Assembly: GCF_022846255.1 (NCBI RefSeq)
Contig: NZ_AP025682.1
Reading direction: 5' to 3' (one strand)
Length of the DNA: 64,000 nucleotides
Source of the DNA: Escherichia coli
GTDB lineage: Bacteria; Pseudomonadota; Gammaproteobacteria; Enterobacterales; Enterobacteriaceae
The notes under the pieces were generated by a model that was not told the origin of the DNA, ran no database searches, and was given only the letters and a program-made list of their open reading frames with translations. The translations under genes were made by a program, and so were the position numbers. Positions 53,746 to 59,745 of the stretch are shown piece after piece. The first letter of the stretch is position 1. Every line of letters begins with the position of its first letter.

Positions 53746-55179
53746 ATGAAAGTAACGCTGCCAGAGTTTGAACGTGCAGGAGTGATGGTGGTTGGTGATG
53801 TGATGCTGGATCGTTACTGGTACGGTCCCACCAGCCGTATCTCGCCGGAAGCGCCGGTGCCCGTGGTTAAAGTGAATACCATCGAAGAACGTCCGGGCGG
53901 CGCGGCTAACGTGGCGATGAATATCGCTTCTCTCGGTGCTAATGCACGCCTGGTCGGGTTGACGGGCATTGACGATGCGGCGCGCGCGCTGAGTAAATCT
54001 CTGGCCGACGTCAACGTCAAATGCGACTTCGTTTCTGTACCGACGCATCCGACCATCACCAAATTACGGGTACTTTCCCGCAACCAACAGCTGATCCGTC
54101 TGGATTTTGAAGAAGGTTTCGAAGGGGTTGATCCGCAGCCGCTGCACGAGCGGATTAATCAGGCGCTGAGTTCGATTGGCGCGCTGGTGCTCTCTGACTA
54201 CGCCAAAGGTGCGCTGGCAAGCGTGCAGCAGATGATCCAACTGGCGCGTAAAGCGGGCGTTCCGGTGCTGATTGATCCAAAAGGTACCGATTTTGAGCGC
54301 TACCGCGGCGCTACGCTGTTAACGCCGAATCTCTCGGAATTTGAAGCTGTTGTCGGTAAATGTAAGACCGAAGAAGAGATTGTTGAGCGCGGCATGAAAC
54401 TGATTGCCGATTACGAACTCTCGGCTCTGTTAGTGACCCGTTCCGAACAGGGTATGTCGCTGCTGCAACCGGGTAAAGCGCCGCTGCATATGCCAACCCA
54501 GGCGCAGGAAGTGTATGACGTTACCGGTGCGGGCGACACGGTGATTGGCGTCCTGGCGGCAACGCTGGCAGCGGGTAATTCGCTGGAAGAAGCCTGCTTC
54601 TTTGCCAATGCGGCGGCTGGTGTGGTGGTCGGCAAACTGGGGACATCCACGGTTTCGCCGATCGAGCTGGAAAACGCAGTACGTGGACGTGCAGATACCG
54701 GCTTTGGCGTGATGACCGAAGAGGAACTGAAGCTTGCTGTAGCGGCAGCGCGTAAACGCGGTGAAAAAGTGGTGATGACCAATGGCGTCTTTGACATCCT
54801 GCACGCCGGACACGTCTCTTATCTGGCAAATGCCCGTAAACTGGGTGACCGTTTGATTGTCGCCGTCAACAGCGATGCCTCCACCAAACGGCTGAAAGGG
54901 GATTCCCGCCCCGTTAACCCGCTCGAACAGCGTATGATTGTGCTGGGCGCACTGGAAGCGGTCGACTGGGTGGTGTCGTTTGAAGAAGACACGCCGCAGC
55001 GCTTGATCGCCGGGATCCTGCCAGACCTGCTGGTGAAAGGCGGCGATTATAAACCAGAAGAGATTGCCGGGAGTAAAGAAGTCTGGGCCAATGGTGGCGA
55101 AGTGCTGGTGCTCAACTTTGAAGACGGTTGCTCGACCACTAACATTATCAAGAAGATCCAACAGGATAAAAAAGGCTAA
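53746..55179 (+). CDS. hldE: Bifunctional D-glycero-beta-D-manno-heptose-7-phosphate kinase / heptose-1-phosphate adenylyltransferase HldE
   Basis: 477-aa [46 protein letters not shown]...; ribokinase-like N domain plus cytidylyltransferase-like C domain. Confidence 0.95.
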
Positions 55180-55223
55180 CCGGAAAGCGCTTCACAGTTC
55201 TCGCGTTGTGCCGGATAGACCTA

Positions 55224-55252
55224 TTGACGCTGTTGTTTTTTCAACCTAAAGT
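55224..55252 (+). promoter_or_regulatory. Near-consensus sigma70 promoter (TTGACG-17-TAAAGT) driving the Sib antisense sRNA
   Basis: -35 TTGACG at 55224..55229, 17-nt spacer, -10 TAAAGT at 55247..55252; predicted TSS about 55259, 40 nt downstream of the ibs stop on the opposite strand. Confidence 0.5.
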
Positions 55253-55258
55253 AAAGGA

Positions 55259-55400
55259 ACAAGGGTAAGGGAGGATTTCTCCCCCCTCTGATGAGTTGTT
55301 AGTAAGTCGGGAAACTTAACAGTAACAACACAACCAGTATGATGACGAACTTCATCATAACCCTTTCCTTCTATAAGGCCCCTTCCTCGGGAGGGGCTTT
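55259..55400 (+). ncRNA. Sib-family antisense sRNA (type I antitoxin; SibD/SibE-like), ends approximate
   Basis: Transcript from the promoter above would cover the whole ibs ORF on the opposite strand and end at a GC-rich hairpin (CCCCTTCC-TC-GGGAGGGG, about 55380..55397) followed by CTTTCCCGTTT; about 140 nt, the size I recall for Sib RNAs. Confidence 0.55.
55299..55358 (-). CDS. Ibs-family type I toxin, 19-aa hydrophobic peptide MMKFVIILVVLLLLSFPTY
   Basis: ATGATGAAGTTCGTCATCATACTGGTTGTGTTGTTACTGTTAAGTTTCCCGACTTACTAA on the reverse strand with RBS GGAAAGGG 5 nt upstream; matches the Ibs consensus (MMK.VIIL..LLL.SF..Y). Below the ORF-track size cut-off. Confidence 0.8.
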   Translation of the reverse strand: MMKFVIILVVLLLLSFPTY

Positions 55401-55597
55401 CCCGTTTCAGCCCCTTGCTGACTCCCCGATTGTTGATGAGCGCCGGACTCCGCGCAACGCTTTCCCAGAGGCAGTTTTGCCTTCCCCGAGCAGTCACGCA
55501 AAACGCTGCAACAGCCTGATCATTTGCACCTTTTTGCGGAACGCAGATATAAAAAATCCCCGGCTTTTTGGGCCAGGGATTATTCATAGAAGAGGGT

Positions 55598-57259
55598 TTA
55601 CTCTGTTTTTTCTTCGACGGGAGTTGTTGAGGTTAAGGGGGAAGTCAATGCCGCCAGTGAGCCGCCTGAAACGCCAATTTCATTGAGCAAGGAGTCAATC
55701 AGCGGTGCCTGTGTGCGGTAAGAAAGGGCGGCAGACAATGCCTGTTCTGCCAGGTTTCCGCCACTAACGCTGCCTGATGCCGCATCCCCCGCAGCACCAC
55801 CTCGGTTTAATCCATCGACCTGAATAATCTTGATGCCGTCGATAGACTTCATCGGCTCAACGGATTTCTCTATTACTGCAGGTAACGACTGTAATAGCGC
55901 CAGTTTGAATTTAAGGCTGGTTTGTTCATCAGAAAGTACGTTGATAGCGTCGTTCAGCGCACGTTGCGCTTCTGCTTCCGCCAGACCCTTTTTACGCGTA
56001 GCTTCGGCTAACTCAACGATTGCCGCCGCCTGCATCTCTGCGGCTTCTTTCTCTGCTTTCGCCCGCACGGTCAATTCAACCGCTTTGGTTTCTGCATCCT
56101 GCGCGGCAGCGATTAGGGCAACTTGTTTAGCACGATCGGCTTCTGCGGTCTGGCGAGTTGTTTCTACGTTTTGCTGGGCGCTTACCGCTTCTGCAAGTGC
56201 AAGGTTGGCACGCGCTTCCGCTTGTGACTGCTGTTCCGATTTGGCGGCAATAGCGATCGATTTCGTCTGGTTGGCGATTTCGGTGACCTGCTGCTGTTCG
56301 ATCTCTTTAATGCGAACTTCACGTTCAGCTTCAACTTTTCTGGAACGGACGGCCTGTTCGCGGTCGATTTCCGTTTCCTGAATCTGTCGTTCAGCCAGAA
56401 TTCGCGTCTGCTCTGCTTCCCGACGACGCTCGGCCTCAAAAGCTGCAATTTTCGCATTCTGCTCAGCGGTACGGGTTTTAACCTGCTGCTCCTGTTCAAG
56501 CGTCATAAACGCTTCTTGTTGTTCAATCTCCAGCTTCCGCGAAAGCGCATCACGGTTTTTCTCACGCACCGCAACTTCTACATCCTGTTCAACTTCGTTA
56601 CGTTCGCGACGACGGCGCTCCGTCTCCTGCGTCAGCTTGGTCAAACCTTCGGCGTCAAAGGCGTTGTTAGGATTGAAATGTTCTTTCGACGTCTGGTTAA
56701 AGTTGGTAAGTGAAACGCTTTCCAGTTCCAGGCCGTTTTTTGACAGATCCTCAGCTACGGTATTTTGTACCCCCTGCACGAAGTTCTCGCGGGTATCCTG
56801 TAACTCATGCATGGTCATTTGTGCCGCTGTTGCACGGAGGGCATCGACAAATTTATCTTCAACCAACATACGTAAGTCTTCAGGCGACAGGGTGCGTTGC
56901 CCCAGCGTCTGGGCGGCGGTGGCAATACCTTCCACTGACGGTTTTACCCGTACAAAGAAAGCGACAACGACATCGACGCGCATACGATCTTTCGTAATCA
57001 GGCTATCAATGGTTGAGCGGCTGACTTCCAGCTTCAGAGTATTCATATTGATGGGGATTATTTCATGAAAGATCGGCATCACGATTGCGCCACCGCTCAT
57101 TACCACTTTTTGCCCACCTAAACCAGTACGAACAAAAGCTTGCTCTGCCGAAGCGCGACGATAGAGCCTGGCGAAAATAATTCCAATAATAAACAGAATG
57201 CATACGGCAATAATCGCGGTAAACATCCAGGAGGGCACAGAATTAACAATATCATCCAT
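55598..57259 (-). CDS. yqiK: Flotillin-like SPFH/band-7 membrane protein YqiK
   Basis: 553-aa ORF MDDIVNSVPSWMFTAIIAVCILFIIGIIFARLYRRASAEQAFVRTGLGGQKVV...; N-terminal TM, SPFH domain, long Ala/Glu-rich coiled coil. Confidence 0.9.
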   Translation of the reverse strand: MDDIVNSVPSWMFTAIIAVCILFIIGIIFARLYRRASAEQAFVRTGLGGQKVVMSGGAIVMPIFHEIIPINMNTLKLEVSRSTIDSLITKDRMRVDVVVAFFVRVKPSVEGIATAAQTLGQRTLSPEDLRMLVEDKFVDALRATAAQMTMHELQDTRENFVQGVQNTVAEDLSKNGLELESVSLTNFNQTSKEHFNPNNAFDAEGLTKLTQETERRRRERNEVEQDVEVAVREKNRDALSRKLEIEQQEAFMTLEQEQQVKTRTAEQNAKIAAFEAERRREAEQTRILAERQIQETEIDREQAVRSRKVEAEREVRIKEIEQQQVTEIANQTKSIAIAAKSEQQSQAEARANLALAEAVSAQQNVETTRQTAEADRAKQVALIAAAQDAETKAVELTVRAKAEKEAAEMQAAAIVELAEATRKKGLAEAEAQRALNDAINVLSDEQTSLKFKLALLQSLPAVIEKSVEPMKSIDGIKIIQVDGLNRGGAAGDAASGSVSGGNLAEQALSAALSYRTQAPLIDSLLNEIGVSGGSLAALTSPLTSTTPVEEKTE

Positions 57260-57915: not shown

Positions 57916-58183
57916 ATGTCACTCCGATGTCCATTTAGTGACGCAATATTTACTTTAGGGTAGTTTCCTTGCTTACATTTATCTTTGTTAATAATAACAC
58001 ATGTTAGAGAAGTTCTGGAAGAGAAAGTCTTTTAATATGGTTTTTTATTTTTCACTAAAAAGTGTGATCGGGGACAATATATTTACGCACGTTATGTTTA
58101 AAGGCACTACACTGATTGGGGAATACTGAAATCAGAAAAAGCATATGGCCTTAAAAGGTATGCGATAACCGGAGGATGTGCTT

Positions 58184-58384
58184 ATGGATCATAGTCTTAA
58201 TTCTTTAAATAATTTCGATTTCCTGGCGCGTAGTTTTGCCAGAATGCACGCAGAAGGTCGCCCGGTCGATATTCTGGCCGTTACTGGTAACATGGATGAA
58301 GAACATAGAACCTGGTTTTGCGCACGTTATGCCTGGTATTGCCAACAGATGATGCAAACCAGAGAACTTGAATTAGAACACTGA
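58184..58384 (+). CDS. glgS: Surface composition regulator GlgS
   Basis: Track ORF starts at GTG 58178; real start ATG 58184 ([45 protein letters not shown]...), 66 aa, GGAGGA RBS. Confidence 0.9.
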
Positions 58385-58388
58385 TATT

Positions 58389-58410
58389 ACGGGCCGTCTG
58401 GCCCGTTTTT
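58389..58410 (+). terminator. Rho-independent terminator of glgS
   Basis: ACGGGCCGTCTGGCCCGT hairpin followed by TTTTT, 5 nt after the glgS stop and 8 nt before the convergent ubiK stop. Confidence 0.6.
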
Positions 58411-58418
58411 GTGATGCT

Positions 58419-58718
58419 TTATTCTGCTTTATCAATAGGCGGGATAGCCGGAGGAGATTGAAGATCTGCTACCGAATTATTGCGCGCTTCCAGTTCACTG
58501 ATGCGCTGCTCCAGTAACGCCAGTTTTTCACGAGTCCGTAACAGGACTTGCGTCTGAACGTCGAATTCTTCGCGGCTTACCAGATCGAGACGCGTCAGCT
58601 GCGCTTGTAGGGTTTGGCGGATTTTTTTCTCCACATCTTCCCCGAACTCCCTGATTCCTTTAGGCATTGATTCGTGAACCTGGCGAGCGATTTGCTCAAT
58701 TTTTTTCGGGTCAATCAT
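58419..58718 (-). CDS. ubiK: Ubiquinone biosynthesis accessory factor UbiK (YqiC, BMFP family)
   Basis: ORF 58419..58778; recognised start [41 protein letters not shown] at ATG 58718; coiled-coil protein of about 99 aa. Confidence 0.88.
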
Positions 58719-58839
58719 TGTAGTTTCCCTGTACTGATAGGTGTTGAGTGCCATTGTAGTGCGATAAGGGTAAGTCATAAACCAGAATTATGTGAAGCTA
58801 TGCGTTGCTGCCGCTAATCATTAGCGTTATAGTGAATCC

Positions 58840-59091: not shown

Positions 59092-59745
59092 ATGAATCAG
59101 ACGCTACTTTCCTCTTTTGGTACGCCTTTCGAACGTGTTGAAAATGCACTGGCTGCGCTGCGTGAAGGACGCGGTGTAATGGTGCTTGATGATGAAGACC
59201 GTGAAAACGAAGGCGATATGATCTTCCCGGCAGAAACCATGACCGTTGAGCAGATGGCGCTGACCATTCGCCACGGTAGCGGTATTGTTTGCCTGTGCAT
59301 TACTGAAGATCGCCGTAAACAACTCGACCTGCCAATGATGGTAGAAAATAACACCAGCGCCTATGGCACCGGTTTTACCGTGACCATTGAAGCGGCTGAA
59401 GGTGTGACTACCGGTGTTTCTGCCGCTGACCGTATTACGACCGTTCGCGCAGCGATTGCCGATGACGCAAAACCTTCTGATCTGAATCGCCCGGGCCACG
59501 TTTTCCCACTTCGCGCGCAGGCAGGTGGAGTACTGACGCGTGGCGGTCATACTGAAGCAACTATTGATCTAATGACGCTGGCAGGCTTTAAACCGGCTGG
59601 TGTGCTGTGTGAGCTGACTAATGACGATGGCACGATGGCGCGTGCACCAGAGTGCATTGAGTTTGCCAATAAACACAATATGGCGCTCGTGACTATTGAA
59701 GACCTGGTGGCATACCGTCAGGCACATGAGCGTAAAGCCAGCTGA
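59092..59745 (+). CDS. ribB: 3,4-dihydroxy-2-butanone-4-phosphate synthase RibB
   Basis: 217-aa [54 protein letters not shown]... Confidence 0.95.

Follow-up and report, generated by a model that had tools for sequence, protein, structure and literature searches.

A single SibE-type Ibs/Sib toxin–antitoxin unit between hldE and yqiK of Escherichia coli

Introduction

Does the spacer between hldE and yqiK in this Escherichia coli genome hold a genuine Ibs/Sib type I toxin–antitoxin unit, and how did it come to hold one where K-12 MG1655 holds two? The question arises from a first-pass annotation of the DNA analysed here, a stretch of 64,000 nucleotides that we refer to as the window, in which a single, unlisted unit of this kind had been noticed. 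The module itself is already known: RefSeq annotates the exact ORF as ibsE, and the family, its mechanism and its variable copy number have been published. Our observations concern the sequence of the unit, its match to the family covariance model, its synteny, the integrity of its ORF and its distribution in the population. We conclude with high confidence that the spacer carries one intact Ibs/Sib unit, the ortholog of K-12 sibE/ibsE, and that the single-unit state is a real haplotype, most likely reached through loss of a D-type unit.

Results

One full-length Sib unit in the spacer

The hldE gene extends to 55179 and the minus-strand gene yqiK ends at 55598, which leaves a spacer of 418 bp (55180..55597), the length given in the first-pass annotation. 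That annotation had also suggested a covariance-model search as a check on the identity of the module. Using the Rfam model SIB_RNA (RF00113), we found a match at 55224..55373 (+) with a score of 142.2 bits, compared to a gathering score of 56 (E = 2.2e-29), which covers model positions 1–147 of 147 and thus the full length of the model. It is the sole Sib match in the whole 64-kb window, and its score lies in the same range as those of the two K-12 units (142.1 and 147.7 bits). Together with a toxin ORF identical to K-12 IbsE at 18 of 19 residues, this match bears out the proposed Ibs/Sib identity. At the sequence level the unit is complete, with promoter, +1 A, closing stem, hairpins, terminator, ORF, Shine-Dalgarno region and double ATG all present. 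Its outer limits are defined by two features.

55224..55580: repeat-unit body of 357 bp, from the Sib -35 to the end of the CAGGGAT within the yqiK terminator hairpin, with homology to both K-12 units
55555..55581 (-): yqiK intrinsic terminator hairpin and T-tract, found by terminator scan; the right end of the repeat unit

The yqiK terminator hairpin is duplicated at the unit junction of two-unit strains and is present in the K-12 junction sequence.

Judged from its sequence, the unit is the hldE-proximal, E-type unit of the known sibD/sibE locus, because its Sib RNA is 97.2% identical to K-12 SibE and its peptide differs from IbsE only by L4F. It shares with K-12 MG1655 sibE/ibsE (b4611/b4666) the position 80 nt past the hldE stop on the hldE-proximal side, the orientation, the 144-nt RNA, and the length and frame of the ORF. 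Besides L4F in the toxin, the window differs from K-12 sibE/ibsE in its -10 (TAAAGT, compared to TAGAGT), in two substitutions in the CTTCTATAAGG stretch aligned with TRD2 and in one substitution in the terminator stem. Furthermore, the window unit is directly followed by the yqiK terminator, whereas K-12 sibE/ibsE is followed by the sibD/ibsD unit. The latter (b4447/b4664), the tandem partner absent from the window, belongs to the same family and intergenic region and has the same unit architecture, but the K-12 SibD core is 84.7% identical to the window, a value probably lowered by a 1-nt indel in the 144-nt extraction (other D units reach ~90%). The differences cluster at Sib nt 33-63 and 113-118, and the C-terminus of IbsD reads SFAAY where that of the window reads SFPTY.

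The Sib RNA gene

The forward strand of the unit comprises a promoter, an RNA and a terminator.

55224..55252 (+): Sib promoter, -35 TTGACG (55224..55229), 17-nt spacer, -10 TAAAGT (55247..55252), 9 of 12 consensus positions
55259..55402 (+): predicted Sib antitoxin small RNA of the SibE type, 144 nt with +1 A, projected from MG1655 sibE
55375..55400 (+): Sib intrinsic terminator hairpin, 11-bp GC-rich stem and 4-nt loop, in both the minimum-free-energy and the centroid structures

The promoter TTGACG-17-TAAAGT had been described before as near-consensus, and is indeed present. Its -35 is invariant in four aligned units (from the window, K-12 and AVS0747); among the same four, the -10 is TAAAGT in the window and in K-12 SibD, and only K-12 SibE differs, with TAGAGT. 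Position 1 of RF00113 coincides with the Sib -35, so the promoter stretch belongs to the model. In a consensus scan, the region contained two promoter-like sites, compared to 0.4 expected from shuffles. The second of them lies inside the Sib gene at 55316..55343 (+) (TTAACA-16-TATGAT) and, with 10 of 12 positions, comes closer to the consensus than the Sib promoter does. On the opposite strand, its -10 reads as the ibs start codons; the site may be a chance match or the start of a short 3' Sib fragment.

The RNA ends were projected from MG1655 sibE, where the 144-nt RNA starts 80 nt past the hldE stop. Because of this annotation and since the aligned stretch contains no indels, the RNA of the window is placed at 55259..55402. 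It folds at -51.8 kcal/mol (z = -3.84), a stability that none of 200 shuffles reached, and the predicted fold consists of a closing stem, internal hairpins and the terminator. SibC, SibD and SibE begin with a +1 A and carry an NAD cap in stationary phase (PMC12956327); the window unit retains this +1 A, which the capping requires. The GC-rich hairpin that the first-pass annotation had placed at the end of the forward unit was recovered as an 11-bp stem, followed on its 3' side by a weak TTTCCCGTTT tail. A simple terminator scan made no call at this hairpin because its T-tract is interrupted. The forward strand is thus predicted to hold an independent unit of ~140 nt that has a sigma-70 promoter and an intrinsic terminator of its own. 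As had been noticed before, it fully overlaps the reverse-strand ORF and its ribosome-binding site: Sib (55259..55402, +) contains both the whole ibs ORF (55299..55358, -) and the Shine-Dalgarno region (55361..55370, -).

The Ibs toxin gene

The elements of the toxin gene are located on the opposite strand.

55299..55358 (-): ibs toxin ORF, IbsE F4 allele, 19 codons and a stop, MMKFVIILVVLLLLSFPTY; translation confirmed
55361..55370 (-): ibs Shine-Dalgarno region AAGGAAAGGG, 2 nt upstream of the tandem ATG ATG, read from the sequence
55429..55457 (-): putative ibs mRNA promoter, -35 TTGCGC (55457..55452), 17-nt spacer, -10 AACAAT (55434..55429), read by eye

The 19-codon reverse-strand ORF with its own ribosome-binding site was therefore found as reported, running from 55358 to 55299. 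The antisense of the Shine-Dalgarno region, CATCATAACCCTTTCCTT, is an exact 18-mer kept in the Sib units of Escherichia, Citrobacter, Salmonella, Kluyvera, Phytobacter and Pseudocitrobacter. In strain 2016C-3878, which has an identical spacer, RefSeq (PGAP) annotates a CDS at the same position as ibsE, WP_001387082.1, 'type I toxin-antitoxin system Ibs family toxin', and this protein is also named ibsE in strains with a near-identical spacer. We took the family name of the 19-aa toxin from RefSeq, the peptide being shorter than the Pfam and NCBIfam minima (30 and 20 aa). The peptide follows the family pattern MM[KRH]x[VI]IIL..LL..SF..Y of 18-19 residues, is almost entirely hydrophobic, and aligns gap-free with 24 other Ibs peptides from Escherichia, Citrobacter, Kluyvera and Phytobacter.

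Studies on related toxins allow the individual residues to be placed. The N-terminal residues of IbsC are dispensable for toxicity except for V5, while residues 6-19 matter (PMC8309996). The L4F of the window allele falls in the N-terminal part that IbsC can lose while staying toxic, with V5 kept. The 19-residue IbsA of Salmonella Typhimurium requires a positive residue at position 3 and Leu11 (bioRxiv 10.1101/2025.05.26.656083), which are matched here by K3 and L11. As K3, V5 and L11 are present and residues 5-19 are identical to those of K-12 IbsE, there is, by analogy with these relatives, no reason to think the peptide of the window inactive. The F4 allele is also found in unit 1 of E. albertii and in two- and three-unit arrays of E. 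coli.

The ibs promoter at 55429..55457 remains putative, having been placed by analogy with ibsC and ibsD. Its consensus match is weak and fell below the threshold of the consensus scan; its -10 region is invariant in the four aligned units. It predicts an mRNA start near 55423, ~20 nt past the Sib 3' end. The ibsC mRNA has an 18-nt 5' overhang past the Sib 3' end and ibs mRNAs measure ~160 nt (PMC2943612), and the predicted start agrees with both values.

The state of the unit bears on whether it might be a decaying, non-functional remnant, in which L4F, the altered -10 and the altered TRD2 region inactivate toxin or antitoxin. Four substitutions do separate its 144-nt RNA from K-12 sibE, including the L4F codon and the two in the TRD2-aligned stretch, one further substitution lies in the -10, and frameshifted ibs copies occur elsewhere, for example in unit 1 of strain FCI48. 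However, the ORF is intact, the unit and K-12 SibE score equally against the covariance model, and K-12 SibD has the same -10, TAAAGT. Sib being a cis-encoded RNA, any substitution stays complementary on both RNAs. Moreover, all E-type arrays that we sampled, those of the K-12 and O157 lineages aside, encode WP_001387082.1, F4 is common to E. albertii and may thus be the older state, and the match of an E-type probe to 4,911 of 5,426 genomes argues for retention. We consider decay very improbable and regard the unit as intact.

A proposed mode of action

Transcription, toxicity and repression are described here by analogy with homologs. The main basis is K-12 sibC/ibsC, which belongs to the same family and has been dissected experimentally (PMC2943612, PMC8309996), but which occupies a different chromosomal locus and is of a different specificity type, the experiments having addressed this pair rather than the E-type F4 allele. 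Sib RNAs are abundant, measure ~140 nt and repress only the cognate ibs mRNA; recognition at TRD1 and TRD2 spreads to an extended duplex, which is cleaved by RNase III in vitro (PMC2943612). IbsC is an α-helical peptide whose overproduction depolarises the membrane within minutes and kills the cells (PMC8309996). IbsA of Salmonella Typhimurium is bacteriostatic and lowers ATP and membrane potential, the former via binding to the Fo subunits a and b (bioRxiv 10.1101/2025.05.26.656083). Its ibsA/sibA system belongs to a different species and locus, and the ATP synthase Fo a/b target and the virulence role were reported for IbsA, not for any E. coli IbsE.

Following these models, the minus strand of the window unit would give rise to an mRNA of ~160 nt encoding the 19-residue hydrophobic IbsE (F4 allele). 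As in its relatives, the toxin would insert into the inner membrane, collapse membrane potential and ATP, and arrest growth. On the plus strand, a constitutive sigma-70 promoter would drive the 144-nt Sib, perfectly complementary to the whole ORF and the ribosome-binding site. Pairing between Sib and the ibs mRNA would start at TRD1, in the 3' part of the ORF, and at TRD2, in the translation initiation region. It would block ibs translation and form a duplex that is a substrate for RNase III in vitro, so that no toxin would be made while Sib is abundant.

The ldr/rdl and zor/orz systems similarly combine a small hydrophobic toxin with an antisense RNA, are repeated within one intergenic region and vary in copy number between strains, but their toxin and RNA families are unrelated to Ibs/Sib. 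In several systems of this type, the antitoxins are divergently encoded rather than fully overlapping. The zor/orz genes (Z3289/Z3290) are found repeated in tandem or as lone genes, depending on the strain (PMC2887945).

Two long ORFs across the spacer are artefacts

Two longer reading frames are also open across the spacer of the window.

55246..55587 (-): long ORF, 113 aa
55339..55686 (+): long ORF, 115 aa

If they were real protein genes, the Sib/Ibs reading would be secondary. Apart from both frames being open, this idea finds some support in one strain, E200086, where PGAP called a similar plus-strand ORF a 'hypothetical protein'. Across 11 other strains, however, the plus-strand frame measures 27-101 aa, and the minus-strand frame measures 36, 95, 113 or 115 aa or lacks a start motif. 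Neither ORF is annotated in the records of 2016C-3878, whose spacer is identical, or in those of 536, Nissle or K-12. In addition, the last 89 nt of the plus-strand ORF overlap the 3' end of yqiK, which is read in the other direction, and the region is wholly explained by a curated RNA family (E = 2e-29). Because their length and start change from strain to strain and they are absent from the reference annotation, both ORFs are artefacts, as the first-pass annotation had judged almost certain; we give next to no credence to their being genes.

One unit is a common state of the locus

A permissive scan (E <= 10) of 54800..56000 revealed no second Sib unit or Ibs ORF, its sole additional match being a weak echo of the unit on the reverse strand, and covariance-model scans of the window found no D-type sequence. 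The earlier statement that the unit is single therefore holds at permissive thresholds. The two tandem units that the first-pass annotation gave for K-12 at this site could likewise be confirmed in MG1655, where sibE/ibsE lies on the hldE side and sibD/ibsD on the yqiK side. Alignment with a K-12 derivative, whose hldE–yqiK spacer measures 794 bp and contains two units 375 bp apart, placed one unit in the 418 bp of the window against two in K-12; the K-12-type tandem pair is thus missing here.

We then surveyed complete E. coli genomes for both arrangements. The one-unit arrangement was counted with a 1,018-bp query anchored in both flanking genes, for which a contiguous alignment was required, and was found in 1,325 of 5,425 genomes (24%). 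In the remaining genomes, the alignment of this query breaks at the end of the first unit. A probe of 75 nt across the K-12 unit junction (>=80% coverage) matches 3,930 genomes, which accordingly carry two or more units, with ~170 genomes resolved by neither query. In 15 genomes the junction probe matches twice, and one of these, SMN152SH1, contains three units in the order E-D-D. A single unit is also present in the finished genomes of 536 and Nissle 1917, both B2 strains, and 12 of the 15 single-unit genomes among the matches listed carry the ibsE label. The suspected variation in copy number between strains is thus borne out by 1,325 genomes with one unit and ~3,930 with two or more. That strains differ in how many type I toxin loci they carry, including Ibs genes, had already been published (PMC2887945), and the single-unit state is a common, real haplotype and an already catalogued strain difference.

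Tandem repeats can collapse in short-read assemblies, and a single copy might in principle reflect such a collapse of the 375-bp repeat. Yet the same 418-bp spacer, letter for letter, occurs in a complete genome, the one-unit arrangement is seen in 1,325 complete genomes, and ordinary reads easily tell apart 375-bp units whose E and D types diverge by ~10%. The chance that the single copy is an assembly artefact is negligible.

Origin of the single unit

Relatives of the locus were sampled by scanning species-representative genomes for exact matches to the 18-mer and then applying blastn and Rfam searches. Seventeen 18-mer loci in unrelated phyla lacked Sib similarity and were set aside as chance matches. 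All six non-Escherichia loci with both flanking genes contain one unit between hldE and yqiK: two from Citrobacter, one from Kluyvera, two from Phytobacter and one from a further enterobacterium. E. albertii and Escherichia sp. E1V33, on the other hand, contain two units each, and the order in E. albertii is E-D, the same as in K-12.

A neighbour-joining tree of the 144-nt cores (145 columns), whose bootstrap values are moderate and which gene conversion or recombination between strains could distort, joins E. albertii unit 1 with E-type units from E. coli (85% bootstrap) and its unit 2 with D-type units (81%), while the two E. albertii units appear as sisters in 0% of the replicates. Because the E. 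albertii units group by type and never together, we infer that the module is old at the hldE–yqiK site and that the E/D duplication predates the split between E. coli and E. albertii. As the duplication predates this split, the E-only state of the window most likely arose secondarily, when an ancestral E-D pair lost its yqiK-proximal, D-type member.

Alternatively, one unit could be the ancestral state of E. coli, never duplicated in the lineage of the window, with the two-unit strains having gained their second unit later. The single units at the six non-Escherichia loci would fit this scenario, as would the absence of a chimeric breakpoint from the window unit. Against it stand the E-D order shared by E. 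albertii and K-12 and the orthology of the units by type (85% and 81%, compared to 0% for a species-specific duplication). Furthermore, single-unit E. coli genomes differ in the type they keep, E, D, D' or Q, and several independent losses account for this more easily than one ancestral single copy. We regard ancestral single copy as unlikely and favour secondary loss of the D-type unit.

In the 357-bp body of the window unit we found no recombination scar or significant internal E/D breakpoint (p = 0.51), so that the presumed deletion left no trace that we could detect; of 31 informative sites, 28 agree with unit 1, the E type, in strain U1. An apparent chimera, unit-1-like on the left and unit-2-like on the right as expected from an unequal crossover, disappeared once the comparison was restricted to the 357-bp repeat, because the rightmost 'unit 2' sites belonged to the unique yqiK flank. 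Strain M114, by comparison, has a real internal breakpoint (p < 0.0005).

The D-type Sib core of E. albertii (L016:586-729) is 98.6-99.3% identical to E. coli D units (L014 units 2 and 3), compared to only 90% and 87% identity to the window for the adjacent 3' ends of hldE and yqiK. This high identity could reflect very strong constraint on both strands or a recent exchange.

Unit types and their order

The units fall into five types, told apart mainly by two Sib segments, nt 33-63 and nt 113-118, and by the Ibs C-terminus. In SibC, these segments correspond roughly to the location of TRD1 and TRD2, the determinants of cognate recognition. They were counted in 5,426 complete genomes with type-specific probes of 50-51 nt.

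Type E: Ibs C-terminus SFPTY, 4,911 of 5,426 genomes
Type D: SFAAY, 3,952 of 5,426, 15 of them twice
Type D': SFATY, 285 of 5,426
Type Q: SFQAY, 279 of 5,426
Type H: SFHAY, 13 of 5,426

We dropped the derivation of E-only, D-only and Q-only totals from these counts after a single unit of the D' type broke the assumed array classes.

In the direction from hldE to yqiK, our sample comprised the arrays E, D, D', Q, E-D, E-D', D-Q, Q-H and E-D-D. No array departs from the order E, D/D', Q, H in this small sample of ~25 (loci including L002, L003, L007, L011-L014, L016, L051 and L081-L087). In FCI48 (L087:541-599), the hldE-proximal ibs is annotated as frameshifted while the second copy, of the Q type, is intact, which represents toxin decay within an array.

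Tentatively, the array might comprise four or more specificity types in a fixed sequence (E, D/D', Q, H), of which any one genome retains one to three neighbouring units, although we would not call this probable. An alternative origin of the order is recombination with other Escherichia clades, where Q-H occurs.

Other features of the window

Apart from Sib, Rfam matches at the gathering threshold in the window were limited to three: an FMN riboswitch (RF00050, 58840..58988, +, 120.9 bits) upstream of ribB (59092..59745), which is expected and ordinary; a naRNA4/REP-type element (RF02564, 47234..47304, +, 83.1 bits); and a tRNA gene (34821..34893, -, 73.1 bits). In the region 58178..58778, glgS (58178..58384, +) is directly followed by ubiK (58419..58778, -). 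The ygiL-yqiGHI fimbrial operon, which lies between these genes in K-12 and 2016C-3878, is absent from the window, as it is from strain 536.

Discussion

The value of these findings lies mostly in annotation: the two long ORFs should be dropped, and the 19-codon ibs CDS and the Sib ncRNA added. PGAP records give the ibs CDS but lack the Sib RNA.

If the locus is indeed an ordered series of types, a longer ancestral array would have been trimmed differently in each lineage by unequal crossover. Strains would then differ in which non-cross-reacting toxin–antitoxin pairs they carry, and the window would represent an 'E only' end state.

The two-unit state of K-12 is not representative of the species, given that about one in four complete E. 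coli genomes carries a single unit, those of B2 strains 536 and Nissle 1917 among them. The unit types present in a given strain therefore matter when 'all sib/ibs loci' are to be deleted, or when NAD capping of SibD and SibE, persistence or cross-talk is studied.
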